Of a stretch of DNA of 64,000 nucleotides, positions 4,879-56,075 are shown one piece after another. The notes beneath the pieces were generated by a model. The model was not told the origin of the DNA. It did not search any database and saw only the letters and a list, made by a program, of their open reading frames with translations. Source of the DNA: Bdellovibrionales bacterium. GTDB taxonomy: Bacteria > Bdellovibrionota > Bdellovibrionia > Bdellovibrionales > JAUICD01. Within the stretch, counting starts at the first letter, position 1; the number at the start of each line of letters is the position of its first letter. The position numbers and the translations under genes were made by a program. The stretch is taken from NCBI GenBank assembly GCA_965197425.1, contig CBDANC010000014.1, forward strand, positions 317,662-381,661, read 5' to 3'.

Positions 4879-5211
4879 GTGAAGAGGGTTGACTTCCACA
4901 GCTCTGCAAAAAAGATCATTAAAAAGTTCCCTAGGGCTGTTCGCTTATCTTTAGGTAAGGCCATTTTTGCGATGCAGATGGGACAGAGGTTAGGAATGCC
5001 TTTTACTAGGGTGATGAAAGATATTAGTAAGGGTGTTGAAGAGATTAGAATTAAGGATACCTCTGGTACTTACCGGGTTTTCTATTTTACAAGGCTTCAA
5101 GATACTATTTTAATTTTCCATGCCTTTAAGAAGAAAACTCAAAAAACGCCAAAAAAGGAGATTGATTTAGGAAGAAGACGATTAAAGGAGATGCTGAATA
5201 ATTATGAATAA
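4879..5211 (+). CDS. HigB-like / Gp49 (DUF891) RelE-ParE superfamily toxin
   Basis: GTG start. EIRIKDTSGTYRVFYFTRLQDTILIFHAFKKKTQKTPKKEIDLGRRRLKE matches the conserved Gp49-type toxin core recalled from memory. The toxin-first order and 8-nt overlap with the HTH antitoxin are typical of higBA. Confidence 0.8.
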   Translation: MKRVDFHSSAKKIIKKFPRAVRLSLGKAIFAMQMGQRLGMPFTRVMKDISKGVEEIRIKDTSGTYRVFYFTRLQDTILIFHAFKKKTQKTPKKEIDLGRRRLKEMLNNYE

Positions 5212-5512
5212 AAAAAAGTTAAAAAATGCTATCACAACGAAAACAGCTCAAGAGTTAGCTGAGGTTCTCGGGCTTAGTCTTGCTGAGAGTATTGAAATTC
5301 AATTTAGTGTTGAATTAAATAATAAAATTATTGAAGTTGTTAAGAATAAGAGACTTACTCATGCTGAAGTTTCTAAATTCACTGGGATAGGAAGAACAAA
5401 GATCACAGCTATCATGAACAGAAACCTCCACGAAATTTCAATAAAGACACTCATTCGTGTTCTTGGGGGGCTAGGCTATAGAGTTAGCCCCAAGTTTTCT
5501 AAATCGGCCTAA
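5204..5512 (+). CDS. HigA-like XRE-family HTH antitoxin
   Basis: LTHAEVSKFTGIGRTKITAIMNRNLHEISIKTLIRVLGGLGYRV is the typical HTH plus C-terminal segment of Gp49-partner antitoxins. Translationally coupled to the toxin. Confidence 0.8.
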   Translation: MNKKKLKNAITTKTAQELAEVLGLSLAESIEIQFSVELNNKIIEVVKNKRLTHAEVSKFTGIGRTKITAIMNRNLHEISIKTLIRVLGGLGYRVSPKFSKSA

Positions 5513-5752: not shown

Positions 5753-5881
5753 GCTATGAGGAAGATGCAGTAAACATAGTATTATTCCTATCTCTGACTT
5801 ATCGACAAAACAAAGAATTTACAGGGACCTTCCGGAACGTAATTCACCTATCAAAAACTGGCGAAGCCGGTTTTTGATAGG
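5753..5881. repeat. two dispersed repeat modules (F: 5753-5814; E2 hairpin: 5822-5881)
   Basis: Module F recurs inverted at about 56190-56253. E2 (gaccttccggaacRtaattc + hairpin cctatcaaaaactggc/gccggtttttgatagg) recurs at 38501-38565. Confidence 0.7.
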
Positions 5882-5891
5882 TTCAATCAGT

Positions 5892-9932: not shown

Positions 9933-10059
9933 TAAATTCTCCTTAAGTCCAATACAAAAACTGCACTCTAACGATCGGTTTCTTATGTTAAAAAATTAAC
10001 CAGGACCAAATACTGGTTGTCTTATAAACTTCAATCGAACTATTCATAAATTTTTTTAT

Positions 10060-10279
10060 AAAGGTCTTCCTAATGAGGCTAATAAAAGTTGATTGGCGTA
10101 GCGGTGTGCAAAGCACGTCGCTGAGCAAAGAAACTTTTTTAGCTGAATGGTTGCCCAGCTCTGGACACGATGCCGATCCCGTCACTAAAGGTCTTCGCTG
10201 AAACTGAAAGTTGCCTTGGCGAAATACAGTGCGAAGCACAAGTGTAGCCAAGGTACTTTCAGTATCAGAGTTGCCCAGC
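10060..10279 (+). repeat. composite intergenic repeat (A-type module + D hairpin module)
   Basis: Starts aaaggtcttcctaatgaggct. 10188-10279 is identical by eye to 13788-13879. Contains ttgcccagctctggacacgatgccgatcc, shared with the loci at 13.7, 28.1-28.4 and 29.4 kb. Confidence 0.85.
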
Positions 10280-10701: not shown

Positions 10702-12804
10702 ATGACTAATCCACTAAGTTCAAATTTTTTTCAGTTCACATTAGCATCGTTTTTTGTGCTTTTTTTGGCTAGCATTGCCAACGCTCAATGCTTGGTATCC
10801 CCTCGTGGAGATGAGAGTTGGGCAAACCTTCCTGTATATGAGGCGGCTTTTATAAGAGCTGCAGAGAAGGCTGATGGGAGCTGCTTAATACACATGTTGG
10901 AAGAAGAGCAGGTGAACATAAATGTACAAGATGATAGAGGGAACACCGCAGTTATTTTATTGGCCTCAAGACCAGGAATAATACCAGCGGATTTGGTTAA
11001 AAAGCTAGTTACATATGCTTACATAGATCTGACTATTAGAAATAATGGAGGATTAAATGTCTTCGATATGGCTAGCTATGGTAATCAAAGGGTGCTTCTT
11101 TTTTTAAATGAATTACTTGCTGATCATTCTAGTACTTTTTTGGATTCTATTGCCAATAGAAATATACAAGCAGTCCAAAGAGCAATTAACTTTGGTGTAG
11201 ACCCTAACATTAGACATGAAGGTCCTAACGGTGAGACTGCTCTAATGGTTGCTGCTAGAGCAAGATATCTTCCTGTGGCTGAAGCTATTTTGAATTCATC
11301 TACTCCTGTGGATATAAACTACCAGCTTGATAACGGAGAAACAGCCTTAATGATTGGTGTACATAGCTGGCATATGGTTGACACACTTTTAGAGCGTGAA
11401 GACATAGATGTAAATATTGAAGATTTAAATGATAGAACTGCATTAATTCATGCAGTTTTTGATAGAAACAACAGTTCTGTTAGACGTCTATTACAAGTAG
11501 AAAACATAGATGTTAATGTAACAGATGTGGGTGGGGAAACAGCACTTTTAGCAGCTAAAAGACTTAATGAACCGGAAATAGTAAACATCTTAAAGCCTTA
11601 TGTTTCGATGGCGTTACACAAAGCTAGTATCGAGGGTGATGTCAGCACTGTGAATTCTATTATATCTCAAATTGTACATGACAATACACCAGATGCAAAC
11701 ACCAGTGATCTTATAAACTCAAAGGACTCGAACGGAAACACTCCTTTAATGAATGCTGTCTTGAGTGAGAGTGAATCAAAAAATACTGTGGTTCGTACTT
11801 TAATTTCTGCATCAAACATTGATTTAAATGCTTCCAATCAAAGAAAAGAAACAGCTCTACTACTTGCCGCGAGGGTTGGGGATTCATCTGCTTTTAGACA
11901 GATCTTATCCTCTGACAAATTAGAAGATGTAAATGCTCGGGATAGATATGACAGAACTGCACTGATGAATGCCTCTCTTTCTGGAGCATTAGAAATTGTG
12001 AATCAACTTTTGACTTTTGAAGGAACTAATATCGGCATTAGGAACAGGTCTAATGAGTCAGCTAAGAGAATTGCAGAAAGACTCGGTCACTCAGATATAG
12101 TAGCCGTATTAGAGGAAGCTGAGATCGTAGCAAAAGAGAAATTTTTTGAAGCTTCTAGATCAGGAGACATGGAAGCGTTAAGGTTATATCAAACTGGATT
12201 TGATATAAATATAAGAGAAGAAAATAGAGATGGCAGTACTGCTTTGATAAATGCTGCCAGAAGTGATCATACATCTATGGTAGAAGAGTTATTAAAATTC
12301 CCGAATATAGATGTAAATGCTAAATCATATGATGGTTCTACAGCTTTGACTGCGGCTTCACAGCTTGGACATGCAGATGTGGTCAATCTACTTATAAATA
12401 ATGTCGAAACCCATTTAGATGTATTTGGTAAACAAGGAAGAACTGCCTTTATGTGGGCTGCTATCTCTGGCAATAATATCATTATTATTAATAACCTCAT
12501 GGCAAAGAACGCTGATCTTACCCTTGAAGACAAAGAACGCGGGTTTACTGCATTGATGTTTGCAGCTCAGAGAAGAAAAATAAGTGTTCTTGAACGAATT
12601 CTACCTCATAAAGACGTAGGTGTATCTGATATAGAAAAAGCCATGGAGGTGACAAGAAGCGGGGAAGTGTTAGATTTGTTAGAACAGCACAGACTTGATA
12701 AAATGACTGTTGGTGAAAGAATTAGCAATTGGTGGAAAAAACACTTTTCAGGAGGATCGGAAGCTTTCTCTTTCGAACCCTTTCCAAGAAATGAAATTTA
12801 TTGA
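10702..12804 (+). CDS. secreted ankyrin-repeat protein (700 aa)
   Basis: GGAGG 8 nt upstream of the ATG. Signal peptide FFVLFLASIANAQC. More than 12 ANK units recognisable (GNTAVILLA, GETALMVAARA, GETALMIGV, DRTALIHAV, GETALLAAKRLNEPEIVNIL, GNTPLMNAV, ETALLLAARVGD, RTALMNASLSGALEIVNQLL, GSTALINAARSDHTSMVEELL, GSTALTAASQLGHADVVNLLI, GRTAFMWAAISGN, FTALMFAAQRR). Confidence 0.85.
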   Translation: MTNPLSSNFFQFTLASFFVLFLASIANAQCLVSPRGDESWANLPVYEAAFIRAAEKADGSCLIHMLEEEQVNINVQDDRGNTAVILLASRPGIIPADLVKKLVTYAYIDLTIRNNGGLNVFDMASYGNQRVLLFLNELLADHSSTFLDSIANRNIQAVQRAINFGVDPNIRHEGPNGETALMVAARARYLPVAEAILNSSTPVDINYQLDNGETALMIGVHSWHMVDTLLEREDIDVNIEDLNDRTALIHAVFDRNNSSVRRLLQVENIDVNVTDVGGETALLAAKRLNEPEIVNILKPYVSMALHKASIEGDVSTVNSIISQIVHDNTPDANTSDLINSKDSNGNTPLMNAVLSESESKNTVVRTLISASNIDLNASNQRKETALLLAARVGDSSAFRQILSSDKLEDVNARDRYDRTALMNASLSGALEIVNQLLTFEGTNIGIRNRSNESAKRIAERLGHSDIVAVLEEAEIVAKEKFFEASRSGDMEALRLYQTGFDINIREENRDGSTALINAARSDHTSMVEELLKFPNIDVNAKSYDGSTALTAASQLGHADVVNLLINNVETHLDVFGKQGRTAFMWAAISGNNIIIINNLMAKNADLTLEDKERGFTALMFAAQRRKISVLERILPHKDVGVSDIEKAMEVTRSGEVLDLLEQHRLDKMTVGERISNWWKKHFSGGSEAFSFEPFPRNEIY

Positions 12805-12923: not shown

Positions 12924-13700
12924 ATGTCCAGAGTTTTAATACATATAGAATACGACGGAACAAATTATAAGGGCTGGCAAAAACAACCTGGTAAAAAAAC
13001 GATACAATCAGAACTGGAAAGCTGTTTAAAACAAATTTTTAAAACAAATATTTCTGTGTCAGGTTCTGGAAGAACAGATGCCAAAGTACACGCACTTAAT
13101 CAAGTTGCACACTTTGATATGCCCAAACCATTTGAAACTCACAAGATAGCAAAGGCAATGAGTGCAAATTTGCCAAAAGATATTGTGGTTAAACATGCGA
13201 GCCCAGTTTCCCACAATTTTCACGCAAGAAAATCCTGTATTAAAAAGACCTATATATACAAAATCTTCAATAGCCAATCACCCAGTTCTATTTTGAGAAA
13301 TTACACTTGTTATGTATCCTATCCACTAGATCTAACCTACTTAAATGATCTGGCAGGTTTCTTGATAGGAGAACATGATTTCACAAGTTTTAAGGCAACT
13401 AATTCAAATGCAAAAACTTCTGTAAGAACAATTTATCAGGCTAAGTGGGAGAAAAGTGGAAGTCATGTTAAATTTTTGATTGAGGCAAATGGATTTCTAA
13501 AGCAGATGATAAGAAACATAGTAGGAACACTTTTATACATGAATTTAAAAAAAATGCCTAAAAGTACATTATCAAAAATAATAGAATCAAGAGATAGAAC
13601 CAAGGCCTTTAAAGCAGCTCCACCACAAGGGTTATATCTAAAAAGATGCTATTTTAATAATAAAGGTGAGCTTAATGAGGCTAATAAGATGGATTGGTGA
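12924..13700 (+). CDS. truA: tRNA pseudouridine(38-40) synthase TruA
   Basis: IEYDGTNYKGWQKQPG and GSGRTDAKVHALNQVAHFD (catalytic Asp) are classic TruA motifs. The last 13 codons lie inside a repeat element. Confidence 0.9.
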   Translation: MSRVLIHIEYDGTNYKGWQKQPGKKTIQSELESCLKQIFKTNISVSGSGRTDAKVHALNQVAHFDMPKPFETHKIAKAMSANLPKDIVVKHASPVSHNFHARKSCIKKTYIYKIFNSQSPSSILRNYTCYVSYPLDLTYLNDLAGFLIGEHDFTSFKATNSNAKTSVRTIYQAKWEKSGSHVKFLIEANGFLKQMIRNIVGTLLYMNLKKMPKSTLSKIIESRDRTKAFKAAPPQGLYLKRCYFNNKGELNEANKMDW

Positions 13701-13940
13701 AATGCAGGACAAAGTCCAAATGAAACCAAAACATCTTTTAGCCGAATGGCTGCCCAGCTCTGGAACACGATGCCGATCCGGTCACACAAGGTCTTCGCTG
13801 AAACTGAAAGTTGCCTTGGCGAAATACAGTGCGAAGCACAAGTGTAGCCAAGGTACTTTCAGTATCAGAGTTGCCCAGCTCTGAAACACGATGCCGATCC
13901 GGTCACATTGATCAGGCAGTCGGCCAAGCAGGCAGATAGG
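13662..13940 (+). repeat. composite intergenic repeat (A module + D hairpin + A 3' half + tgcctga-type tail)
   Basis: aaaggtgagcttaatgaggctaataagatggattggtgaaatgcaggacaaagtccaaatgaaaccaaaacatcttttagc forms a long imperfect hairpin. The D module is identical to 10188-10279. ttgcccagctctgRaacacgatgccgatccggtcac occurs twice. Confidence 0.85.
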
Positions 13941-15177: not shown

Positions 15178-16941
15178 GTGTTGGTATTTCTAAGGCTAAA
15201 CCTTATCATTTTGTGTAGCATGCTTGTAGCTTGCTCAACTTTTAATAAAGTAAATAAAGACGCAAACATATCTCATGTTAAAAAGCCTGTGTCAAAGACA
15301 GCCCTGTCTGACTATCACTTTATGATTGGGGAAATTTCAAGCCTTGAGGGAAATTCAAATCAGGCTATCAGTCACTTTAAACTTGCCAGCTTATACCAAC
15401 CACAGTCTGACATACACTATAGATTGGCAGAAGAGCATTTAGATACAGGCAATATTAAGGCTAGTATTGAAAGTTCCAAAAAAGCCTTAGAACTAAACCA
15501 ACAAGCGACAAAGCCTCTTGTGCTTTTGGGCAACTTATATGCCATAGAAGACAATATAGATAAGGCCACAAAAGCATTCAAAAGGGCCGTAACTAAGAAA
15601 GAATATTCTGCCCTCTTATATTTAAGTGCTATTTATGAAAAACAGGGCAATTTCTCTAATGCTATAGAGATGTTAAAAAAATCTTTACACCTTTCTCCAT
15701 CAACATCACACATAGCCCACTATAAGCTAGGCAACTTATATCTAAATCAAAATCCTCTCTTAGCCAAAAAACACTATAGGCTGGCTATTGAGGAAAATTG
15801 GGATTTTGTTCCACCAGTTCTTAGTCTACATGATATGTATAAATCAGAGGGAAATATAGAACAGGCAGTAGGTGTTCTATCTAATTTTCAATCCATATCT
15901 AACAAAACTCCCGAAGTTTCATTAAGACTAGCAGATCTTTATCTAGCACAAAAACGCTTACCAGATGCCTATAATGAATTTAGCTTTATTTATAATACAA
16001 TGCCCTATGATCTTACAGTCCCAACAAAAATGGGTTTAATATTGGTAGAACAAGGGAAATATGAACGAGCAGCTGCCATTTTTAACCAAATTTTGGATCA
16101 AGCCCCTGACTCTGATTCAACCAAATTTTATTTGGCTGCAGTTTATGAAGAATTAGATTTAAAACAAGAGGCCCTAGATACATTCCTGGAAATTACAAAG
16201 AATTCTTCTCACTACGAAGAAGCAATGCTACATGCAGCATATCTAAGTAACTTTTTAGGTAAAAAATCCAGTGCCTTATTAATAATGAAAGAAACTTTAA
16301 AGTCTCACCCTTCACTACAGGTTAAAATAATGTATGCAAACTTACTAGGTGAGCAGGGGAAGCATGACGAAGCTATCTTGATACTTACAAATGCTCTTTT
16401 GGATTTTCAGAATAACATCGACTTATACTACGCTATAGGCTCAATATACGATATGGCAGGAGAAAAAAACAAAACAATAGAGTTTATGAGTAAGGTTATT
16501 GAATTAGACCCTAACAATGTGGCTGCACTAAATTACATAGCTTACACTTATTCCGAACAGGGCTTGAACCTAGATACCGCTCAGAGACTTGCACATAAAG
16601 CTCTAAGACTTAATCCTAATGATGGGTATATTAAAGATACTCTAGGTTGGATCCTATATAAAAAAGGAAGACTAGAAGATGCAATTGTGATACTAGAATC
16701 AGCGCATGACCTTGAACCAAACGAAAGTGTTATAGCAGATCACCTAGGAGATGTATATTACAAAAACAATCAGATCAGAAAAGCAACAGCTATGTATGAA
16801 AAGGCAGTGGAGCTTGAAACCAATGCAGCCCTACTTGATGAAATTAAGGCAAAACTTGCAAATCTTAAAGATAACGAACCACCAACTGAAATCCCTAACC
16901 AAACTCCTCTACAAGACTACGAAATTATTTCTGCTAACTAG
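15178..16941 (+). CDS. TPR-repeat lipoprotein
   Basis: Lipobox MLVACS. Successive 34-aa TPR-like units throughout (e.g. AIEMLKKSLHLSPSTSHIAHYKLGNLY, AALNYIAYTYSEQGLNLDTAQRLAHKALRLNPNDG). Confidence 0.8.
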   Translation: MLVFLRLNLIILCSMLVACSTFNKVNKDANISHVKKPVSKTALSDYHFMIGEISSLEGNSNQAISHFKLASLYQPQSDIHYRLAEEHLDTGNIKASIESSKKALELNQQATKPLVLLGNLYAIEDNIDKATKAFKRAVTKKEYSALLYLSAIYEKQGNFSNAIEMLKKSLHLSPSTSHIAHYKLGNLYLNQNPLLAKKHYRLAIEENWDFVPPVLSLHDMYKSEGNIEQAVGVLSNFQSISNKTPEVSLRLADLYLAQKRLPDAYNEFSFIYNTMPYDLTVPTKMGLILVEQGKYERAAAIFNQILDQAPDSDSTKFYLAAVYEELDLKQEALDTFLEITKNSSHYEEAMLHAAYLSNFLGKKSSALLIMKETLKSHPSLQVKIMYANLLGEQGKHDEAILILTNALLDFQNNIDLYYAIGSIYDMAGEKNKTIEFMSKVIELDPNNVAALNYIAYTYSEQGLNLDTAQRLAHKALRLNPNDGYIKDTLGWILYKKGRLEDAIVILESAHDLEPNESVIADHLGDVYYKNNQIRKATAMYEKAVELETNAALLDEIKAKLANLKDNEPPTEIPNQTPLQDYEIISAN

Positions 16942-17476: not shown

Positions 17477-17567
17477 AGCAAATTCTTTAGCCTTAGTTAC
17501 ATCAGGAAAGAGCCGTTCTACCTGATTGCCTGACTGCCTGACTACTAGATCAGTGTTAAAGAAGACC

Positions 17568-18506
17568 TTAAACAAATTGTTTTTCTTTCATCCATTCATT
17601 ATCTAAAAATTTGGTTAGATAATTTCGTACACCATCTGGCAATATAACCACACAGTTAGAACCTTCATCTAAATTTTTAGCTACCTGAAGCGCCCCATAC
17701 ATTGCAGAGCCTGATGAACCACCACAAAGTAATCCTTCTTGTCTTATAATTTTTCTGGCCATGTTAAAAGATTCTTTGTCATTTGTTTTGATCCAAATAT
17801 CTATTATATCTCTGTCTAAAACTTTTGGGATAAAGTCATACCCAATGCCTTCTACATTGTATGTTGCCACATGTGATCCTCCTGCCAGGATAGAGCCTTC
17901 TGGATCAACTCCTACTATTATACATTTTGGATTTTTACTTTTAAATTTACGAGCCATTCCTGTTATGGTTCCACCCGTTCCTGTGCCTGCTACAAGCATA
18001 TCTACTTTTATTTGATCTAGAATTTCTTGTGCTGTGTTTTCAAAATGTGCGTCTGGATTATTTGAGTTGGAATATTGATCTAGAATATATGAATCTGAAA
18101 TTTGTTGATTTAACTTTTTGGCAACATTGAGATGGCTTTTTTCATCATCATATGAAACTTCTGTTGGAGTTCTTACAATTGAAGCCCCAAGGGCTTTTAG
18201 CACAACTTCTTTTTCTTTACTCATTTTTTCTGGCATAACAATTACTATTTTATAACCTAATGCAGCCCCTGCCATTGCAATTCCAATTCCAGTATTTCCA
18301 CTGGTGGGTTCTATAAGAGTATCACCTGGTTTTATTTTCCCCTCGTACTCTGCTTGTCTTATCATGCTGTAAGCTATTCTATCTTTCACAGAACCACCTG
18401 GATTTAAAAACTCACATTTAGCATAAAGATTGCATTTTAGATTTTTGGAAAGCTTATTGATCTTTACAAGAGCTGTATTTCCTATTGCCTCTAATATATT
18501 TTCCAT
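17568..18506 (-). CDS. cystathionine beta-synthase-type PLP enzyme (catalytic core only; CysK/CBS family)
   Basis: [70 protein letters not shown] and [16 protein letters not shown] are collinear with the human CBS core as I recall it. No heme or Bateman (CBS-pair) domains. Confidence 0.85.
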
Positions 18507-18610
18507 AAGGTTTTCCTAACCCAACACTGATTGAGCATGACAAACAATCTGGCTTTGCTAGATTTTTGTCATGCAAATTACGCTACTCCACAGTCACTTT
18601 GAAACCAAAA

Positions 18611-18960
18611 CTTTGGTTCAATTGGCTTACGGGATAAATCTTTATACTTTCCAATTGAAATAACCTCCCTGCGGTCGGTTTTTCAGCTGAATGGTTGCCC
18701 AGTTCAAAGATAAGCCTAACGAGGCCAAATAAATGGACTGGTGCAACGAGTGTACAAAGTACAAGTGAAACCAGAACATTTGTTGGCCAAGTGGCTCCTT
18801 CCCGGTGGACCTCACAGCCAATACCCTACCACTACACATGTCATCAAATTCATTTCCATCAAGATGCTAATCCTGTTCCACAAGGTCTTCCTAATCAAGC
18901 TAAAAGATGGATTGGTGCAACGTGAAAATTGCCCAGCTTTAGTTAGACCGAGGAGGATGA
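18611..18960. repeat. composite intergenic repeat (inverted C-module core + two diverged A-type modules)
   Basis: 18611-18679 is the reverse complement, with a few mismatches, of 29511-29580. caaggtcttcctaatcaagctaaaagatggattggtg at about 18881 is an A-module 5' end. Confidence 0.75.
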
Positions 18961-27943: not shown

Positions 27944-28060
27944 CTAAAAGGCACCTGTAGGTTAGGGTATAATTTACTTAAACTTATCTTTCATACACCA
28001 TATAACACCAAAACAAGGGTTTTTAACAATGTTGTTTCTCAACCCTCTAACGCAAGGTCC

Positions 28061-28465
28061 AAGGTCTTCCGAATCAAGCTAAAAATAGATTGGTGAAATG
28101 CAGGACAAAGTCCAAATGTAACCAAGACATTTTTTAGCTTGAGGGTTGCCCAGCTCTGGACACGAGGCTGATCCCATCACTAAGGTGAGGTTAATGAAGC
28201 TAGAAACAAGGTGACTTGTTGCCTTTTTCTAGCTGAATGCCTGTTCCCTGGTGAACACGATGCCGATCCATTTGCTAAAGGTCTTCCGAATCAAGCTAAA
28301 AATAGATTGGTGAAATGCAGGACAAAGTCCAAATGTAACCAAGACATTTTTTAGCTTGAGGGTTGCCCAGCTCTGGACACGAGGCTGATCCCTTTGCTAA
28401 AGGTCTTCCGAACGAAGAAAAAAACAAGGGGGCCATCGCCTGATCCCCGCTTGCCTGATGCTGGA
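28061..28465 (+). repeat. repeat array: A1 (28061-28174), B module (28175-28277), A2 (28278-28391), truncated module plus tgcctga-type tail
   Basis: A1 and A2 are 114 nt and identical by eye. B has the same architecture (aaggtgaggttaatgaagct ... hairpin aacaag-gtga-cttgtt ... acacgatgccgatcc). Confidence 0.9.
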
Positions 28466-28759
28466 TCATGTATTCTTACACAGTTTGTATAGATATCCTC
28501 CTAGTATACTTGCTTCTTCTATTAGGTTTTTGTGGTTTATGATTTCTAGTATTGCTTGTGTTTCTCTGAGTGACCCTAGGCTTATTGTATGGAATCTTCT
28601 TCTTTCTTTAACTGTTGGTCTGGAACTTCCTTCTGCTAAATTGAGCACAATGCTTAGTATAGCTCTTTGGAATTGGTTCCTGAGTGGTTCTTTCAGGTAC
28701 AGGTTCTTAGAATTATTATAAAATTGAACTGCTAACTGATAAGTTCTAAAATTTTTCAT
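28466..28759 (-). CDS. four-helix-bundle protein (23S rRNA intervening-sequence protein / Avd-like family)
   Basis: FRTYQLAVQFYNNS...LRNQFQRAILSIVLNLAEGSSRPTVKERRRFHTISLGSLRETQAILEI fits the family consensus (QL.RA..SI..NIAEG ... F...A.GS..E). AAGGAGA 8 nt upstream of the ATG. Confidence 0.85.
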   Translation of the reverse strand: MKNFRTYQLAVQFYNNSKNLYLKEPLRNQFQRAILSIVLNLAEGSSRPTVKERRRFHTISLGSLRETQAILEIINHKNLIEEASILGGYLYKLCKNT

Positions 28760-28767
28760 AATATGTT

Positions 28768-28840
28768 GTCTCCTTTTTTAGAAAAAATATTTGCTCCATA
28801 GTTTTTATCTGGGGGGAAATATTTTTTAAAAAAAGGAGAC
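28768..28840 (-). promoter_or_regulatory. long interrupted hairpin that can sequester the Shine-Dalgarno of the four-helix-bundle gene
   Basis: 12 bp (28768-28779 with 28829-28840, gtctcctttttt/aaaaaaggagac) plus 11 bp (28782-28792 with 28817-28827), with a 24-nt loop. The SD arm ends 8 nt upstream of the ATG on the minus strand. Confidence 0.45.
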
Positions 28841-28954
28841 CATCGCCTGACTACCTGTTTGCCCGCCTGCCAGAATGCCTGTCTGCCCGGGTACTTAGTG
28901 ATTGCTTTATATTATGCCTTGTGCTAATTGTTTTTTGGTCTTTAGGGAGTTGCT

Positions 28955-29347
28955 GTGAGTGCAAAGGCAAAAGTGAATGGGAAAACAAATGGTGCCACAG
29001 AGGATTTAGCCTCTGTTACTGGCAAACTTAACAAAAGCAACGTGAATGTCTCTTTTTGCCCTGGGGATACTGTAGAGGTATATGTCAGGGTGAAAGAGGG
29101 AGAAAAGGAGAGGACCCAGGTTTTCAAAGGCTTGATACTAAAAGTCCAAGGCTCTGGTTGTGGAAGGTCTTTCACGGTAAGAAAAATTTCATATGGAGTT
29201 GGAGTGGAGAGAACCTTCCCTTTCACAAGCCCCTTCATACAAAAAGTAAAGCTGATATCTCGTGGTGAAGTTAGAAGAGCAAAGCTATATTATATTAGAA
29301 ATTTGAAGGGTAAGGCTGCTAGAATCAAATCTGAGTTGACTAGATAA
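28955..29347 (+). CDS. rplS: 50S ribosomal protein L19
   Basis: GTG start with GGGAG 5 nt upstream. [31 protein letters not shown]...[21 protein letters not shown]...RRAKLYYIR is the L19 signature region. Confidence 0.9.
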
Positions 29348-29360
29348 ATGTTCAAATCTA

Positions 29361-29477
29361 AAGGTCTTCCTAATCAAGCTAAAAAATGGATTGGTGAAAT
29401 GGTAAGACGGAGTCCAAATGTAACCAAGGCATTTTTTAGCTTGATGGTTGCCCAGCTCTAGAACACGATGCCGATCC
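29361..29477 (+). repeat. A-type repeat module (copy A3)
   Basis: aaggtcttcctaatcaagctaaaaaatggattggtgaaatgg...cattttttagcttg hairpin plus ttgcccagctctagaacacgatgccgatcc. Starts 14 nt after the rplS stop. Confidence 0.85.
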
Positions 29478-29484
29478 CTTTGCC

Positions 29485-29621
29485 AAAGATCTTCCTAACG
29501 AGGACAAAAAACCGACTGCAAAGGAGGTTCATCCAATTGGATAACATAAAGATTCATCCCGTGAGCCAATTGAACCAAAGGCAACAAGTCCACTTGTTTT
29601 TATCCTCATTCGGAAGACTTT
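29485..29621 (+). mobile_element. MITE-like element bounded by ~25-nt imperfect terminal inverted repeats
   Basis: The left end aaagatcttcctaacgaggacaaaaa matches the reverse complement of the right end, aaagtcttccgaatgaggataaaaa (1 indel, 3 mismatches). The core 29511-29580 recurs inverted at 18611-18679. No ORF. Confidence 0.6.
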
Positions 29622-30203
29622 GTGGAATTTGACCCTCAGAAAGAATCTATCATAGGAGTTGATGAGGCCGGGAGAGGGTCTTTGGCGGGGCCTGTTTATG
29701 CTGCTGCTGTTAGGATTAAATGTTTTAAAAATATTTCTGCTTACAAAGACTCAAAGCTTCTAAGCCCAAAAGCCAGAGAAAAGATTTTTGAAGAAATAAT
29801 AACAAATCAAGATTATGCAATAGGCAAAGCAACTGCCAGAGAAATAGAGGAGCTAAACATACTAAATGCAGCACTGCTTGCCATGCGTAGGGCTGTGTTA
29901 GATCTTGGTTTGAGTAAAAAGTTTTTAGTATTAGTTGATGGATCATTTTTAATCCCTGATCTGGATTTAAGACAGGTGGCTTTAACCAAAGGAGAATCCA
30001 GGGCAAAATCAATAGCTGCAGCCTCTATTGTAGCAAAAGTTGCTAGGGATAAGAAAATGTGTAGTCTATCGAAGGAGTATCCTCAATATGGTTTTGAAAC
30101 TCATAAGGGCTATCCAACGCAAGCTCATGTCCAGGCAGTTAAGCGATACGGCCCTTGTCAAATCCATAGAAGAACATTTTCAAAAATCAGAGAACTTATT
30201 TAA
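29622..30203 (+). CDS. rnhB: ribonuclease HII
   Basis: GVDEAGRGSLAGPVYAAAV and the collinear RNase HII core. The GTG start directly abuts the repeat element. Confidence 0.9.
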   Translation: MEFDPQKESIIGVDEAGRGSLAGPVYAAAVRIKCFKNISAYKDSKLLSPKAREKIFEEIITNQDYAIGKATAREIEELNILNAALLAMRRAVLDLGLSKKFLVLVDGSFLIPDLDLRQVALTKGESRAKSIAAASIVAKVARDKKMCSLSKEYPQYGFETHKGYPTQAHVQAVKRYGPCQIHRRTFSKIRELI

Positions 30204-32408: not shown

Positions 32409-32585
32409 CACTGAAAAACCATTGACAACAAACTGTCTTCGCTAGTTTTTGGCGGCGGCCCAACGTTGCACAAGGTCTTCGCACACGTTCCAACATTGAT
32501 TAAATCTGACCATAAACTGTATTTTATTAGGATTTTCTAAAAAAAGTTATAGCAATGTGTATCTTGTTTGCTATGATCTTGTTTC

Positions 32586-35500
32586 ATGGGATGGGGCTTT
32601 CAAAACAAAAACCTTCACAAGGGTATCGACAGTTGTAACACCAACAGTGCTAGTGCTGTTGATGTTGTTGGCGAAGAAGTTAATGCTAAAAACTTTAGTA
32701 ATAACAAATATTTAGCTCCCCCCCCCCCCCCCCAATATAAATTTCCACTATTAAAATGTCTCCACCTGCAAGGTGGTGGGTACTCCACTGGTGGTGGTTT
32801 TACTTTAATAGAGACTGTAGTTGGTTTAGCCTTAGTATCCATATCTGGTTTTGTAGTTACATTTATATCTGGTCAGATGAACACGGCATCTAAGTTGACT
32901 GATGATTCCTATGAATGTGCAGCTATAGCTACTAATGTAATGGAGAGATTTTCTCAGGGTGGCTTAGAGCCTATTGTTTTGCTTAACTCAGAGCATTTCC
33001 CTGGTACTCCTCCTACTGATTTTGAAGCAGCTATAGAAGAAAGAAGCACTATATCTGTAAACACTAGTGGAGAGGCTACTCATAATGCTGGTCCTAATCT
33101 TGTTATAGAGCCTCATGGTAGTAATAGTCACATTACTTTGAAAGTAGATAAGTTTCATAGAGGTAGTGGTGTTAGTTTAGTAGAAGATTTATTTAACGAG
33201 TACCGTTCTACCATATGTCCATCTAATGTAGATAACCTGACCTTTGATCTTGCTAATGATATGGTGATTACCTACAAGGCTGGTAACACTGCTAAGCTGA
33301 TAGACTTACATAAGAAGCTAGATGATGTAAAACCAGCAACTCCAGGACCTGAACCTGATTACTATAAGGAAATGGCTGATGCTAATTTATCTTCTAATAA
33401 CTATGCTTGGGATACTTTTACCTCTGAGTACTTATATGGTTTATCCAAGAGTCTCAAAAATGCCTTAAATTTGCATCTCTTAGCAGGTTTTACTGATTAT
33501 AGTACTAGTTATACTAATACTGCTCAGCCATATGATGTGAAGATAGGTATAAGGCCTTGGAGTTTATCTAATCGTAGTGCTCTTGGTTGTACTGATACTA
33601 AGGTTCATCCAGCAGTCTTTTTAAGACCTGGTTCTAAATATGACAGATACATTACAGATAGTATTTTAGGCACCAACGAATTAGAGAGACAGAATAAGAT
33701 TGGTTATAAGCTGGAGAGGAGTCTAACTTCAGCTAAGATGAGGTCAGATGTAGGTTTGAAGTTATTTGTTGAAGTTAAAACAAGACCTGGTGTGGATAAG
33801 TTAGAAAGATCCTGTAAGTCAAATAAGTTATTTGCTTATGCTAACAGCTTTGCAGTTCCTCCATCTAGAAGACCTGTATATGTTCACCATGACAGAGAGA
33901 TTAAAGATGGTTCTAATGATTTTATAGCTTCCACAACTCACCCTCTTCAAAACAACCCTGGTTTAAATGTTGGTTATAAGTATGGTGCTGCTGATTCTAT
34001 CCCTACTAAGCCTGATGGTGCTACTCATGCTACTCTTAGTGATTATGCTACAGAAGCTACATTAAACTTTAGGAATATTGGTAAGGTTTGGAGAGATGTA
34101 AACAACCCTAGTTCCTTTGCTGATGATGAGGAAGATTTTAGAGGGGTCTTTTTATGTGGTTTTGAGAAGAATCGTTTTGAAGACTGTGTTAAAGGCCCCC
34201 CCGATTGTGATGATATACCAGGTTTAAGCTCCTATAGGACTTTTGGTACTAATGGTGCACATAAGGCTGGTATAAGAAGCTATGATACTGAGTATGGTAG
34301 TAGAGATGGCTCCGTAAACTCATCTAGGAGATGGGATTTATGTGAGAACTTTAAGCTTACCCCCAGTCAATCTAATAATTCTACCACACTAAAAGCCAGT
34401 GCATCCAATGTAGATGATGGTAAGTTAGGACTTGAGTTAGATAATTTAAATGTATCCAGTTGGCCTGATGAAGATCAGGATGCTGATTATAGAGTTAGAT
34501 TTAAGTTAGTAGATGAATATGGTAATGATTACTCTGCCACAGAAAATGGACAGATACAGGAGGATGATTATACCGAGGAGCATAGAGTTTTTGCCTACAA
34601 CTGTGCACAGTTTGGTAATACTCATGCTTCTGGTAGTTATCAAAATCCCCCTATAGGCTGTGGAGTTATAAATCCTGATCCTAATATTGCTAAGTACAAC
34701 CGTAGGATAGATAATCCTTTCTATAATACCCAAGCAGATTGTGAACATCAGTTTAACCTACTTTCCAGCCCCAGTGCTCAATGTGTGAAAGTTACTAATA
34801 TTAGGGTTTACAATGATTATTTTGATGATTCCATAGAGGAGAGGACAGGTCCTGCGAACAGCCCTGTTCGTCCTGTTAATGGTACTGGAGTTACCTGTGA
34901 TTATTGGGTTGAGCAATGTGTAAAAGATGGTACAGCCTGTGTGCAATGTGGCCAAGGTTATATGCGTGATTATCCTAATGCCACAAGACAATCTTGTCAT
35001 GGAGGTTCTGCAAGCTTAGGTGGAGTTACCTGTTATAAAGCAGGCTCTCATTGTTGTCATAATGATTATGGTAGTTTTAACTGTTTTACAGGTAAGGATC
35101 CTTGTTCAAATCCTAATGGTTGTGGATTTAACCAAGATCCTACCTGTGGAGCTACCTGTGGTGATAACGGCCACGGATGTAATATTTGTACAGGAGCTAC
35201 TCCTTGTAACACAGCTGGTTGTGATAGTTGTAGTTTTGGTACTGCTGGAGTTTGTCAATATAAGTGTAGTTTCCCTACTCAGTACTGTGATGGTGCTAGT
35301 AATTGTGTAGAATGTCTGAATGACGGCCACTGTGGTGGTAATGATATATGTTGTTCTTACAGTTGTAAGGCCCCATGTAGTCCAGATTCTGATCAATGTG
35401 AGGAGTGTGCTAGTGATTGTGCATCTCCTCATTCAATATGTGGTTCTGGTGAAGGGTGTAATGGTAGTGGGTGTTGTGTAGAGCTACCGCCTTGGTGTAA

Positions 35501-51936: not shown

Positions 51937-52707
51937 CTACATTACTTTAGCTTCGTTTTTAAGAAGTTCTATTAGTTTTTCTGACATTTCATCTATACTG
52001 CCTTCAATCATCTGTACTTTTTGTCTTTTTTTAGGTGGTGTAAAATCCGAAAATTCCACCTTAGATTCCTTTAGATCAACTCCAAGATCAGTTATAGAAA
52101 TTTGTTCTATGGGTTTTTGTTTGGCCTTTAGTATATTTGGAAGTTTTGGATATCTAGGAAGATTAAGTCCTTTTGTTGCGGTAATAACACATGGTGTATT
52201 TAGCCTTACTACATGCTTAACACCACCTTCTACATCGATTTGTGCTGTTATTTTTTCTGAATAAGAAATACTACTTACATTTGTAGCACTTGGAATATCA
52301 AAAAATGCTCCCAACATAGAGCCTATGCTAGATTGGTTGTGATCTATAGACAAAGTTCCAAGGAAAATAATATCAAATGGACCTTTGTTTTTTAAAGCAA
52401 GGCTTAAAATTTTAGCTTTTAAATAGCTATCAGCAATATTAGTTTCACAATCTATCAAAACAGCATCATCTATACCCATAGCTAGTGCATGTCTTATAGG
52501 TGTAACAATGCTTAAAGCAGAGCCTATAGAAAACACAGTTGCACTACAGTTGTAGTGTTCCTTTGCCTTTATAGCTTCTTCTATAGCAAACTCATCGTAA
52601 GGATTGATTATCCACTTGGGATCTCTTGCTTCTATTTTGTCATCTGTTAAAAGAAGTTTGCTTTCTGTATCATAAACCTGCTTAACACAAACTGCTATCT
52701 TCATCAC
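51937..52707 (-). CDS. etfB: electron transfer flavoprotein subunit beta
   Basis: MKIAVCVKQV...NPYDEFAIEEA is the EtfB N-terminus. Immediately upstream of etfA. Confidence 0.9.
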   Translation of the reverse strand: MMKIAVCVKQVYDTESKLLLTDDKIEARDPKWIINPYDEFAIEEAIKAKEHYNCSATVFSIGSALSIVTPIRHALAMGIDDAVLIDCETNIADSYLKAKILSLALKNKGPFDIIFLGTLSIDHNQSSIGSMLGAFFDIPSATNVSSISYSEKITAQIDVEGGVKHVVRLNTPCVITATKGLNLPRYPKLPNILKAKQKPIEQISITDLGVDLKESKVEFSDFTPPKKRQKVQMIEGSIDEMSEKLIELLKNEAKVM

Positions 52708-52800
52708 TTAAAGGTAACACATGTATTAGTTCCTTCAAGATATTTAAGTTGCAAGAAATCTTTGTTATGCTCAATTAAATTTCATACATCAAAATTAAAT

Positions 52801-52834
52801 AAAAAAAGGTAGGCCAATTAACCTACCTTTTTTC
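52801..52834 (-). terminator. bidirectional rho-independent terminator
   Basis: aaaaaaa-ggtagg-ccaattaa-cctacc-tttttt. Stem of 6-7 bp flanked by an A run and a T run. Downstream of the 386-aa gene. Confidence 0.7.
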
Positions 52835-52859
52835 TTTTACACTAGCTTTAACTATTAAA

Positions 52860-54020
52860 TTAATTACCTGATGTTGATTGACGAATTAAATCCCCAAGTG
52901 TGTTCCAGCCTAAAGCTTCGTCATCGTCAAGATCTCCCAAACTACATTTCTCAATTTCAGCTCTGCTATCTTCAGAGTAGATATAAAAACCGTTGTCGTT
53001 GGCAATTTCTTTTAAGTTCTCGCATATCAAAGGCGTAATATCAAGTAATGCAAAGTTCCTACCTAACAAGTTATCAGATGGAGCAGCACCTATATTCATA
53101 GGCATAATTAAACTTCTGATAACTCCAAGCTCCAATGATCTAGAAAGAATCCTATCTCCAAAAGCATTAGGATTAGCAATTTCAACCAATGCTCCGTTCT
53201 GAATATGTTCATGACTGAAAGTTCCGTTTAGCCCCCAAGAATACGCTGGGATTACCCGAACTAAAGATGAAAACGGGTGGGCATCTACAACCATAACATG
53301 TGCAAGAGGGCGTCTAGTTGTCTTAGTAAACCCAAGATACCTAGAGTTACTATCACAAGGAATTCCACTAAACGAGTGTTTTATATTGTGTATCATAAAC
53401 ACATCGCCTTCCTTCACATTGGCGCGGCTACCAGTCGAAATATAGAAATGATCAGTGAAAGCGTCTGGCTTTTGCACAACCCTACTTCTCCACTCATCTC
53501 CATAGTTGTTATTTACATCATCAACAGCCTTTCTGACTCCATCCTGTAAAGCATTCCGAATAAGATCATTGATAGGGGTGGCCCTAACATGATCCAAACA
53601 TACTCCACCAGACACAATACCTGAAGCACTTGCATTTCCACAGTACAACTCACCATTCCTAACATATAAGTCAAATTGCCATTTTTTGTTTTCCTCTTTT
53701 GCCTCGGAACTTGTCCTAACGAGTTCATAATGATCTTGAGCCGCAATAGTAATTGCTGTACTCATAGACAATTTTGCAGAAGTAGCAATAAATCCTGTAC
53801 TAAAAAAACTTAAAAAACCCCTTAGCAAATCAAATCCCATAACGTGGTTATTTTCGGTAAATACCTCTAAGCTAAGTGCGGTATTATGAATTCTATAATC
53901 TGTATAAGAGTTCAAACAACTATCCATAGATGAGGTGTACCTAGCTCTATCAACCTCTGTCTGAGCCTCAGATAAATAAGGCACCACAACCAATACCAAA
54001 CATAAAAGAAATTTCTTCAT
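52860..54020 (-). CDS. hypothetical secreted protein (paralog 1)
   Basis: Signal peptide LCLVLVVVPYLSEA-Q. Collinear with 54416..55747 from DRARY(T/I)SSMDSCLN onward. No family recognised. Confidence 0.65.
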   Translation of the reverse strand: MKKFLLCLVLVVVPYLSEAQTEVDRARYTSSMDSCLNSYTDYRIHNTALSLEVFTENNHVMGFDLLRGFLSFFSTGFIATSAKLSMSTAITIAAQDHYELVRTSSEAKEENKKWQFDLYVRNGELYCGNASASGIVSGGVCLDHVRATPINDLIRNALQDGVRKAVDDVNNNYGDEWRSRVVQKPDAFTDHFYISTGSRANVKEGDVFMIHNIKHSFSGIPCDSNSRYLGFTKTTRRPLAHVMVVDAHPFSSLVRVIPAYSWGLNGTFSHEHIQNGALVEIANPNAFGDRILSRSLELGVIRSLIMPMNIGAAPSDNLLGRNFALLDITPLICENLKEIANDNGFYIYSEDSRAEIEKCSLGDLDDDEALGWNTLGDLIRQSTSGN

Positions 54021-54184
54021 AACCCCTCCCCAAAAAAATTACAAACCGACACAAATTCTACCATTCTCACAAGAGAACAGGTCAACTCTTAAAATCAATC
54101 CACTAATATTATTATTTATCTAACGTTTTGAAATGTGCAAAATATGAGCAAACAATTTCGAGTACGGCATTTAGAATGCTCTTA

Positions 54185-54263
54185 CTTCTATTTTGTCATC
54201 TGTTAAAAGAAGTTTGCTTTCTGTATCATAAACCTGCTTAACACAAACTGCTATCTTCATCAC
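54185..54263 (-). pseudogene. duplicated 5' fragment of etfB (first 26 codons)
   Basis: 54185-54426 is identical by eye to 52629-52870 (offset 1,556). The copied reading frame stops after about 30 codons. Confidence 0.75.
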
Positions 54264-54356
54264 TTAAAGGTAACACATGTATTAGTTCCTTCAAGATATT
54301 TAAGTTGCAAGAAATCTTTGTTATGCTCAATTAAATTTCATACATCAAAATTAAAT

Positions 54357-54390
54357 AAAAAAAGGTAGGCCAATTAACCTACCTTTTTTC
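54357..54390 (-). terminator. duplicate of the bidirectional terminator
   Basis: Same sequence as 52801-52834, within the 242-bp perfect duplication. Downstream of paralog 2. Confidence 0.7.
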
Positions 54391-54415
54391 TTTTACACTA
54401 GCTTTAACTATTAAA

Positions 54416-55747
54416 TTAATTACCTGTTGTCGGTGGCACACCACTGTTACCTTGGCCAAGAGCTTGAGAGGCCTGAGACGTAACTGTGTCACCTAAACTT
54501 TGACGAATTAAGCCCTCAAGTGTGTTGCCACCAAAACCCTCGTCATCGTCAGGATCTTCCCAAAATATTCTTTCTAAAGTAGCTTCGTCTGCACCACATC
54601 TTGCAATTTCAACCCTGCGATCCTCAGAGTAGATGTAAAAACCATTTTGATTTGCAACTTCCCTTAGGTTTTCACATATCAAAGGCGTAATGTTAAGCAA
54701 TATAGAATTCCTACTACTTAACAAGTTGCCAGATTGACTTGAAGGAGTTAAATTAGCTGCTTCTCCACCTCCTGATGGAGCAGTAGCTGTATTCATAGGC
54801 ATGATTAAGCTTCTGATAATTCCAAGCTCTAAGGATCTAGAAAGAATTCTATCTCCAAAAGCATTAGGGTTAGCAATTTCAACCAATGCCCCGTATTGAA
54901 TGTGTTTGTGACTTGGAACTCCATTTAGATCCCAAGAGTACTCTGGTATTACTTGAACCAAAGATGAAAATGGGTGGGTATCTATAACCCTAACATGCGC
55001 AAGGGGGCGTCTGGTTGTCTTAGTAAATCCAAGATACCTAGAATTAACATCACAAGGAATTCCACTAAACGAGTGCTCTATATTATATATCATAAACACA
55101 TCGCCTTCTTTTACATTTGCATAGTTGCCAACTGGAACATAGAAATGATCGATGAAAGCATCCGGTTTTTGTACAACCCTACTTCTCCACTTATCTCCAT
55201 ATTTATTATTCACATCATCAACAACCTTTCTAACTCCATCTCGTAAAGCATTTCGAATAAGATCATTAATAGGGGTGGCCCTAACATGATCCAAACATAC
55301 TCCACCAGACACAATACCTGAAGCATTATCATTTCCACAGTCTAACTCACCATCAGCTCTAACACCTATGTGAAATTGCCATTTTTTGTTTTCTTCTTTT
55401 GCCTCAGAATTTACCCTAACAGCTTCATAGTAATCTTGAGCTGTGGTAGTAAGGGCTGTACTCATAGACAACTTTGCAGAAGTAGCAATAAATCTTGCAC
55501 TAAACAAACTCAAAAAACCCCTTAGCAAATCAAATCCTAAAGCGTGGTTATTTTCGGTAAGCACCTCTAAGCTAAGCACGGTATTATGAATTCTATAGTT
55601 TGCATAAGCGTTCAAACAACTATCCATAGATGAGATATACCTAGCTCTATCAAACCTACCAAAGAGTCCGCCTGTATTTACATTTTTGCAGGCCACACTA
55701 GATACAAGAATAACTAGAGCTAAAAATGAATATTGTATTGTTCTCAT
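54416..55747 (-). CDS. hypothetical lipoprotein (paralog 2)
   Basis: Lipobox VSSVAC. Homologous to paralog 1 but with insertions (e.g. SGGGEAANLTPSSQSGN) and a longer Gly/Ser/Gln-rich C-terminus. Confidence 0.65.
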   Translation of the reverse strand: MRTIQYSFLALVILVSSVACKNVNTGGLFGRFDRARYISSMDSCLNAYANYRIHNTVLSLEVLTENNHALGFDLLRGFLSLFSARFIATSAKLSMSTALTTTAQDYYEAVRVNSEAKEENKKWQFHIGVRADGELDCGNDNASGIVSGGVCLDHVRATPINDLIRNALRDGVRKVVDDVNNKYGDKWRSRVVQKPDAFIDHFYVPVGNYANVKEGDVFMIYNIEHSFSGIPCDVNSRYLGFTKTTRRPLAHVRVIDTHPFSSLVQVIPEYSWDLNGVPSHKHIQYGALVEIANPNAFGDRILSRSLELGIIRSLIMPMNTATAPSGGGEAANLTPSSQSGNLLSSRNSILLNITPLICENLREVANQNGFYIYSEDRRVEIARCGADEATLERIFWEDPDDDEGFGGNTLEGLIRQSLGDTVTSQASQALGQGNSGVPPTTGN

Positions 55748-55965: not shown

Positions 55966-56075
55966 ACTTTGAGATTTAAATTTAAGACTTAAAACACAAT
56001 ATAAACATATCTCACACCTAATGTACATTTAGCAATGGTTGATTTTTACAATTATTTGACAGGACTTTTTTCAAT

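Follow-up and report, generated by a model that had tools for sequence, protein, structure and literature searches.

A mosaic family of extragenic hairpin repeats, with several unrelated hairpins in one conserved scaffold, in a Bdellovibrionales genome

The 64-kb stretch of Bdellovibrionales DNA analyzed here (hereafter the window; G+C content about 36%) carries a family of small repeats that we confirmed to be real, mosaic, extragenic, hairpin-forming and present in both orientations. On balance, we favor the view that they are lineage-specific, non-coding, non-autonomous mobile repeats of an uncultured host whose closest named relatives are metagenome-assembled genomes (MAGs) of Bdellovibrionota. 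The recurring modules total approximately 2.4 kb, or 3.8% of the window, and occupy 11 loci (Table 1), all of them intergenic except for slight overlaps with the 3' ends of some open reading frames (ORFs). A preliminary description had listed these loci and estimated their extent at about 2.5 kb (4%), and motif counts, together with self-BLAST of the loci against the window, located repeats at each of them; the tentative locus proposed at 32434-32505 reduces to a 14-nt relic and is doubtful.

Judged against shuffled sequences, in which 0 matches were expected in each case, the head motif AAAGGTCTTCCKAATSARGC had 6 matches in the window, the variant head AAAGGTGAGSTTAATGARGC had 6 over both strands, and the tail TTGCCCAGCTCTGGAACACGATGCCGATCC had 3 at up to 3 mismatches, with 6–8 copies at lower identity (repeat families D8, D10 and D13). 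Self-BLAST returned about 100 pairwise matches with E values up to 1e-8, including one between 28061-28183 and 28278-28400 (E 4e-56) and, as the strongest, one between 10058-10279 and 13660-13879 (E 2e-63), so that the similarity holds under alignment statistics. Nor is the family confined to this region: among seven metagenome runs read as Logan contigs (X1–X7, of which X1 contains 95% of the window's 31-mers), runs X1–X6 hold contigs in which the modules have unlike flanks. In an Rfam scan tRNA-Cys alone passed the gathering score, and a scan of 27950-29650 at E≤10 gave noise of 13–22 bits. Plasmid and phage databases held no match to the repeats, the literature none to the tail string, and GTDB representative genomes none to the tail pattern; one JGI metagenome match (L081) lay within a high-G+C coding region and was dismissed as chance. 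The repeats are a previously undescribed non-coding family, and a new instance of interspersed mosaic palindromic repeats.

The basic unit is 95–125 nt long and consists of a head, one long imperfect hairpin and a tail. The head reads (T)AAAGGT followed by CTTCC, GAGCT or GAGGT and then nAATnAnGC, and the tail in its fuller form reads GAATGG(Y)TGCC followed by CAGCTCTGGAACACGATGCCGATCC and about 7 nt. In the hairpin, which has about 40 pairs and spans about 65–95 nt, the head and GAATGG(Y)TGCC pair with each other to form the outer stem; what remains of the tail is mostly unpaired. The head consensus of the preliminary description was thus borne out as a motif, but not as a separate start module: the head forms the 5' side of the hairpin's outer stem, where its variable positions change in step with the 3' arm. 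The head variants pair with different 3' partners (CTTCC with GGTTG, GAGCT with GGCTG, GAGGT with GCCTG), and a further covarying swap exchanges ATCAAGC/GCTTGAT for ATGAGGC/GCCTCAT. At least five unrelated inner hairpins, each present in multiple copies, share this scaffold of head and tail.

Most units fold into the long imperfect hairpin that had been described, and do so well beyond shuffles. Long units had fold z-scores of -2.0 to -8.6 relative to dinucleotide shuffles, with folds unchanged under DNA parameters; the exception is module X, whose fold at 29483-29585 was not significant (z -0.7). An alignment of seven type A and type B units (A1), from which we built covariance model R1, comprises 28 pairs in its consensus, and 94.8% of its cells are paired. 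Compensatory changes on both sides were present in 11 of the 28 pairs, compared with 3.8 +/- 1.4 in column shuffles, none of 500 of which reached 11, and a control with slid partners yielded at most 2 pairs changing on both sides. Folds were more stable on the head strand than on the opposite strand for 9 of 12 full units and, when hairpins were taken by themselves, for 12 of 13 segments. G.T oppositions on the head strand outnumbered A.C oppositions by 21 to 8 (binomial p about 0.02, the units not being wholly independent). Among the apical loops, triloops of AAA, GAA or GTA with a C-G closing pair predominate, GCGAAGC among them, and one loop is UUCG. Because pairing has been kept, the head strand is the more stable one and G.T oppositions are in excess, the hairpin appears to be important as a single strand, that of the head, whether as RNA or as DNA.

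Several specific roles for the hairpin were considered and rejected. A hammerhead ribozyme, suggested by CTGATGAG-like heads, has no conserved core here (AATCAAGC variants occur) and no Rfam match. A K-turn or loop-E motif at the UAAUGA/GAAU internal loop is not essential, since units with head1 have a perfect helix instead. Coding roles, whether as RPE-like peptides or as small ORFs from AGGTGA-N5-ATG in head2, are incompatible with the stops and 1-nt indels that disrupt the frame and with the lack of an ATG in head1. Reading of the sequence, the only check made, indicated that AATCAAGCTAAAA does not fit the IHF site WATCAANNNNTTR. Promoter and terminator scans showed no enrichment; intrinsic-terminator scans called none of the long units and only the inner stem at 38692-38704, and on visual inspection short units (57795-57853, for example) resemble terminators.

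The dispersal of the family is evident from contig depth. Expressed as summed contig depths in X1, a metagenome that may mix several strains, unique flanks stand at about 2.5–4, compared with about 27 for hairpin B, 37 for hairpin C, 40 for head1, 140 for the right arm plus tail, 100–150 for the short unit and 160–250 for module X (388 at one position). The modules thus occur in tens to more than 100 copies with other flanks in metagenome contigs, and 26–45% of the aligned X1 contigs continue into unlike sequence. Runs X3–X6, from related strains, also hold modules with other flanks, and short-read contigs break at the repeats.

Filled and empty sites could be compared in three relatives with syntenic loci (L082, L083 and L084), whose NuoH is 87–92% identical to that of the window. 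The L19-rnhB spacer measures 275 bp in the window versus 16–17 bp in L083 and L084, the nuoA-L19 spacer 1012 bp versus 242–244 bp in L082 and L083, and the cysK 5' spacer 499 bp versus 59–124 bp in the relatives. Downstream of cysK the window has an insert of about 90 bp, where the genes overlap in L082 and are separated by 12 nt in a contig of X7; this contig, from a closer relative that lacks the insert, is the sole informative one for an empty cysK site in closer strains. BLAST found essentially none of the window units in L082–L084, and motif scans gave one head-like match (L084 5067). Covariance model R1, in contrast to these searches, found diverged units at L082 7939-8067 (43.9 bits, E about 1e-7) and L084 12633-12733 (26.6 bits). 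These occupy non-orthologous spacers, the window spacer corresponding to the L084 site being 1 bp long, indicating that the family is older than the species and that its sites turn over.

Within the window, one unit (38660-38757) is nested in the apical region of another unit's hairpin, read in the opposite orientation from 38805 to 38568, and contigs of X3–X5 have the same junction. Tail end, head and hairpin C form a block that shows 97% identity between 10165-10279 and 13765-13879 and stands behind a different first hairpin at each locus (family D19), which points to recombination. The arrays starting at 10058, 13660, 28058 and 29358 are head-to-tail, with inversion only at 29577-29621. Units also form the ends of genes: the truA ORF extends 13 codons into a head, which supplies its stop, the cysK stop TAA is the TAA of a head, and the TGA of a Tad-like gene lies within head2. 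Judged from their placement, units just 3' of the co-oriented truA, cysK, L19, Tad-like and 1510-aa genes would probably be transcribed with them and are putative 3' stem-loops.

Table 1. Repeat units, modules and associated features (window coordinates unless a relative is named; z, fold z-score; MFE, minimum free energy; bits, score with R1; TRF, Tandem Repeats Finder; TIR, terminal inverted repeat)
Feature	Position	Strand	Evidence or remark
Accessory modules	5753-5881		Between convergent genes
Module Z	5756-5830		Inverted copy of 56176-56249; self-BLAST 81% over 75 nt, E 9e-15
Module Y	5818-5845		Similar to 38495-38522; 86% over 28 nt
Long near-perfect hairpin	~5845-5882		GCGAAGC loop; fold
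Full unit: head1, hairpin B, tail	10058-10186	+	MFE -39.6, z -2.4; 119 bits
Unit: head1, hairpin C, shortened tail	10187-10279	+	97% identical to 13765-13879 (D19); z -6.1
Full unit: head2, hairpin A, tail	13660-13787	+	z -3.8; 140 bits; overlaps truA 3' end
Full unit: head1, hairpin C, tail	13788-13908	+	z -4.5
Solo octamer-type run (CAGGCAGT-like), array end	13909-13940	-	Motif as in arrays upstream of PF05635 genes
Octamer run (period 8) and head relic TAAGGTCTTC	17519-17570	-	TRF 17521-17543; relic TAA is cysK stop
Module X	18611-18683	-	Inverted copy of 29507-29580; 85% over 74 nt, E 1e-17; X1 depth ~388 vs 2.5 unique
Array: partial arm and tail start, diverged head2-hairpin A' (18704-18801), degenerate tail, truncated head1 unit (18879-18960)	18684-18960	+	z -5.3; 95 bits
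Full unit: head1, hairpin A, tail	28058-28180	+	139 bits
Unit: head2' (GAGGT), short hairpin, tail variant CCTGTTCCCTGGTGAACACGATGCCGATCC	28181-28276	+	
Full unit: head1, hairpin A, tail	28277-28398	+	98% identical to 28061-28183 (D7); 141 bits
Head1, G+C hairpin, octamer-type motifs	28399-28465	+	On minus strand, PF05635 gene trailer
Separate element: PF05635 gene (28466-28759), palindromic leader, degenerate octamer run (28840-28890)	28466-28890	-	
Full unit: head1, hairpin A, tail	29358-29482	+	12 nt past L19 stop; 138 bits
Head1 variant and module X	29483-29585	+	X1 depth 160-250 vs ~4 unique; z -0.7
Inverted head1 and short hairpin	29577-29621	-	With 29358, TIR-like ends of 264-bp composite, which fills a spacer of 16-17 bp in relatives
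14-nt relic CACAAGGTCTTCGC (tail end and head)	32470-32483	+	Downstream of glnS; exact match to 13782-13795; weak
Head variant, short hairpin, module Y	38495-38582	-	
Unit: head2, hairpin A, tail, split apically by nested unit	38568-38805	-	4 nt past 1510-aa gene stop; inverted repeats I1, I4
Nested unit: head2', UUCG-loop hairpin, tail variant	38660-38757	+	Opposite orientation, inside hairpin of 38568-38805
Unit: head2, hairpin A (near-perfect stem), alternative tail CTCTTTCGAAAACAG...	56074-56170	+	z -8.6; 103 bits; tail also in X3-X5 contigs
Module Z	56176-56253	-	Inverted copy of 5756-5830; self-BLAST
Two short units	57771-57853	-	Motif counts, sequence
Head2', short hairpin, T-run	57795-57853	-	Head contains TGA stop of Tad-like gene
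Solo head between direct AAAGGTG repeats	57771-57798	-	
Hairpin type A	13662, 28060, 28277, 29360, 56076, 38803(-)		Diverged copy 18706
Hairpin type B	10060		
Hairpin type C	10187, 13788		
Two short hairpin types	28181, 38662		
Module X, either orientation	18611-18683, 29507-29580		Self-BLAST
Modules Y and Z, either orientation	5753-5881, 38495-38522, 56176-56249		Self-BLAST
Alternative tails	56164; 28225/38718 variant		
PF05635 cassette sites	28466-28890; L085 4579-5116; L086 9697-10294, 12304-12573; L084 4640-5060		

As mobile repeats, the units would insert into the very short spacers of a compact genome, mostly at a stop codon or only a few bases away from one, where they would pile up head-to-tail and could land inside each other, and recombination at the shared head and tail segments may then produce the mosaics. 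An enzyme whose gene lies beyond the window is likely to move them in trans. By analogy with the REP-associated tyrosine transposases (RAYTs) that serve repetitive extragenic palindromic (REP) sequences, or with HUH enzymes of the IS200/IS605 type, this enzyme may possibly recognize the single-stranded head-strand hairpin and not double-stranded TIRs. We slightly prefer such recognition over a MITE (miniature inverted-repeat transposable element) of the DDE type, counting in its favor the asymmetry of the units, their direct tandem arrays, the strand-biased stability, the insertion into a loop, and the lack of a duplication at the nested insertion and at the L19-rnhB site.

Several observations weigh against mobile repeats of this kind. 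No transposase, RAYT or reverse transcriptase was found among the ORFs of at least 80 aa in the window, in agreement with the preliminary description as regards RAYTs and transposases, and no consistent target-site duplication (TSD) or target motif could be derived. The strand asymmetry comes from about 12 non-independent units, arm-to-arm conversion in a DNA palindrome can also yield compensatory changes without selection, and the copy numbers are sums over contigs from metagenomes that may hold several strains. Finally, three features are more in line with a DDE-type MITE than with an HUH mechanism: a pair of TTTAAGG sequences at cysK, which is the one clean case of a duplication, the recurrence of TAA ahead of heads, and the inversion of heads at 29358/29621.

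The idea that the units are classical DDE MITEs, Correia-like or derived from IS630 or IS5, seems rather unlikely to us. The head would then be the TIR, and TA/TAA or TTAA-containing targets would be duplicated, with arrays arising as each head recreates the preferred target (T)TAA/AGG. Accordingly placed sequences do occur: the 264-bp composite 29358-29621 is bounded by inverted heads, the cysK insert has TTTAAGG on either side, against a single copy in L082, TAA precedes 11 of 18 heads and stands at 4 of 7 unit junctions, CTTTAAGG is the flank consensus past inverted heads in contigs of X1 and X2, and each hairpin is effectively a long inverted-repeat pair. However, the units are asymmetric, with a tail that has no inverted counterpart, and neither the nested insertion nor the L19-rnhB site has a duplication. 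The strand bias in hairpin stability also speaks against this idea, and we saw no insertion sequence (IS) with matching ends, those of an IS4-like element in a further locus (L086) being unrelated.

An improbable alternative is that the units are functional RNA modules, such as 3'-UTR (untranslated region) stem-loops, processing sites, terminators or small RNAs, which selection on RNA structure would preserve and ordinary duplication and recombination, not transposition, would copy. This would suit the five loci with a co-oriented unit 0–12 nt past a stop codon, the compensatory changes and G.U pairs that keep head-strand pairing, the UUCG loop in one hairpin, and the layout of A-run, hairpin and T-run in short units. 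A purely RNA-functional origin is nevertheless less likely, because at least 3 loci (18611-18960, 28058-28465 and 56074-56253) are antisense to both neighbors, terminator scans do not single out the units, and the orthologous genes of relatives lack them. There is likewise no Rfam match, and the nested insertion and tens to more than 100 copies are better explained by selfish spread. A side observation concerns the cysK leader (18507-18610; L084 14375-14498), where a hairpin and a CGTAATT motif are conserved between the window and L084. Since this motif resembles module Y, some of the "modules" may be old leader elements and not recent insertions.

A second repeated element often abuts the hairpin units. 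The preliminary description had the arrays ending in heptamers of the tgcctga type; TRF gives a period of 8 at 17521-17543, and these runs turned out to belong to the leader and trailer of a gene cassette. In the window the cassette gene encodes a 97-aa protein (28466-28759, minus strand) of family PF05635 (Pfam E 5e-16), flanked by octamer runs at 28430-28465 and 28840-28890. This four-helix-bundle family, also labeled "23S rRNA IVS protein", resembles Avd, an accessory protein of diversity-generating retroelements (PMC10053308). At least 15 paralogs with 73–84% identity lie on contigs of 451,728 bp, the length of the contig that contains the window, and of 461,012, 307,069 and 217,076 bp, probably from the same assembly, and related large contigs contain many more. 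In two further fetched loci bearing PF05635 genes, octamer arrays (AGGCAGTC/AGGCAATC) precede the gene in 18.6 copies (L085) and 11.9 copies (L086), and a palindromic leader between array and gene in L085 is conserved in the window. At the nuoA-L19 spacer, L084 has a PF05635 gene or remnant with short tandem repeats upstream, and L082 and L083 have no such gene. This layout indicates that the octamer runs belong to a gene cassette distinct from the hairpin units. In L086 an IS4-like DDE transposase gene lies between a full and a 5'-truncated PF05635 copy.

We regard it as quite improbable that the units constitute a scaffolded-hairpin system, and not a decaying MITE, in which a fixed head and tail would hold interchangeable, individually multi-copy hairpins maintained on one strand, with a partner that recognizes the scaffold as single-stranded nucleic acid and is perhaps tied to the expanded PF05635 octamer cassettes at array ends. 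If true, this would be a new mobilization or RNA-protein system in Bdellovibrionota-like bacteria. Very improbable is the proposal that the units are accessory ends, terminators or remnants of multi-copy PF05635 cassettes, these being the true mobile entities. In the window (28399-28418) and in L084 (5067) a head does follow directly on the PF05635 gene, as does a head-like sequence in L085 (about 5150-5185); cassette-type octamer runs close two gene-less arrays (13909-13940 and 17519-17553), and the 15 or more paralogous cassettes are on contigs probably from the window's own assembly. Yet most units, at 10 of the 11 loci, are not near a PF05635 gene, the cassettes of L085 and L086 lack long-hairpin units, and unit depth is far above the number of paralogs. 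An assembly artefact, chimera or chance similarity, conceivable for a metagenome assembly in which short-read contigs break at repeats, is effectively refuted by the independent presence of the same modules in Logan contigs of at least six runs from several studies and by the 0 matches expected from shuffles.

The host belongs to a poorly known lineage for which no repeat families have been described. For NuoH, the best named relatives are Bdellovibrionales/Bdellovibrionota MAGs at about 60–65% identity, with relatives at 87–92% in ENA/Logan assemblies, and a search with GlnRS among GTDB representative genomes gave at best 57% identity. Housekeeping genes in the window include nuoA-N and those for L19, RNase HII, GlnRS, TruA, CysK, lipoate and 2-oxoacid dehydrogenase functions and electron-transfer flavoprotein (ETF), alongside genes for a 700-aa ankyrin protein, TPR proteins, a cN-II 5'-nucleotidase, a Tad-like protein and two giant ORFs. 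The ankyrin-repeat protein, the nucleotidase and the TPR proteins (10702-12804, 56293-57687 and 15178-16941) are eukaryote-like, and a related contig reaches 1.6 Mb; these features hint at a host-associated or predatory lifestyle of this Bdellovibrionota-like lineage.

Other features of the window adjoin the repeats or are repetitive themselves. A Gp49/HigB-like toxin and helix-turn-helix antitoxin pair (4879-5512) lies directly upstream of the locus at 5753-5881, and L085 also has a Gp49-like gene (176-469). An island of about 11 kb (32586-43339), edged by the head relic at 32470 and divided by the repeat cluster at 38495-38807, holds the two giant ORFs, which have no counterpart in L082–L084, where glnS adjoins or lies near lipB. 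The first encodes a cysteine-rich protein of 1915 aa (32586-38333) with no Pfam match and includes a tandem repeat of 426 nt (36444-37330); the second encodes 1510 aa with a weak reprolysin-like M12 domain. About 130 nt inside the 1915-aa ORF is a run of 16 C (32718-32733), which may represent a tract for phase variation or else an error in a homopolymer of a low-coverage assembly. A tandem duplication of about 1.6–1.7 kb (52623-55747) comprises paralogous ORFs of 386 and 443 aa without Pfam match, 86–99% identical in segments, with the same strong terminator hairpin behind each of them (52801-52834 and 54357-54390).

Small repeats scattered through bacterial genomes shape them in several ways. 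They break assemblies, as here, where every short-read contig ends at repeats; they alter gene ends, as in the lengthened truA and the repeat-derived stops of cysK and the Tad-like gene; and they offer recombination sites and can stabilize or terminate transcripts. The present family provides a clean series of filled and empty sites, together with a nested insertion, in a compact, maybe host-associated genome, and could become a marker for strain typing and a handle on the mobilizing enzyme.

Because the repeats are dispersed beyond the window, match no Rfam family and hold up against shuffles, their likening in the preliminary description to bacterial interspersed mosaic elements (BIMEs) and MITEs is fair as a functional analogy; it does not extend to membership. 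Like the REPs and BIMEs of enterobacteria and the RAYT-associated REPINs of Pseudomonas, the units are extragenic, multi-copy (tens to hundreds), clustered and combined with other short motifs into palindrome mosaics, often just past stop codons and with the hairpin on one strand. However, the REP palindrome measures 20–40 nt whereas the hairpin here spans about 90 nt, its 5' end has a conserved GTAG-type tetranucleotide where our units have (T)AAAGGT and no GTAG, and REPs alternate or form inverted doublets whereas these units are mostly head-to-tail. There is no sequence similarity, and REPs and BIMEs carry a cognate RAYT (Y1 HUH), usually flanked by REPs, which we did not find among the scanned ORFs of the window.

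Other families share further traits. The pneumococcal BOX elements (boxA-boxB(n)-boxC) have a similar order of head, variable middle and tail, are intergenic with a predicted stable structure and have no known cognate transposase. Their sequence and host are unrelated and the likeness is one of architecture only: BOX elements differ in how many middle modules they have, whereas these units differ in the sequence of the middle hairpin, and whole units are in tandem. The Correia elements of Neisseria and the ERIC/IRU elements of enterobacteria are, like these units, imperfect palindromes of 100–150 bp in transcribed intergenic DNA with filled and empty sites, and ERIC variants have internal insertions comparable to the nested unit. 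Of the traits of MITEs, a length below 400 bp, the lack of an ORF and many dispersed copies are present. The 26-bp TIRs and the TA duplication of Correia elements are no consistent feature here, and an asymmetric tail is present; inverted heads bound one composite (29358/29621), single units end in the non-inverted tail, and the TTTAAGG pair at cysK is the TSD-like sequence, with none at the nested insertion or L19-rnhB.

With the PATEs (palindrome-associated transposable elements) of the IS200/IS605 group, the units share asymmetric ends, no clear TSD and a one-strand hairpin, and the nested unit has gone into a loop region that is single-stranded. PATEs, in contrast, have a subterminal hairpin at each end where our units have one central hairpin, and a fixed 4–5-nt target 5' of the left end where 5' flanks here vary (TTAT, TAAT, CAAT, TAAC, ATAC and ATCT); no TnpA was found among the window ORFs. 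The family therefore resembles BIMEs, BOX elements and MITEs while lacking the defining features of REPs (size, GTAG, inverted doublets) and of PATEs. What sets it apart from REPs and BIMEs, and is its unusual trait, is that several unrelated hairpins occupy a single conserved scaffold with their pairing kept.

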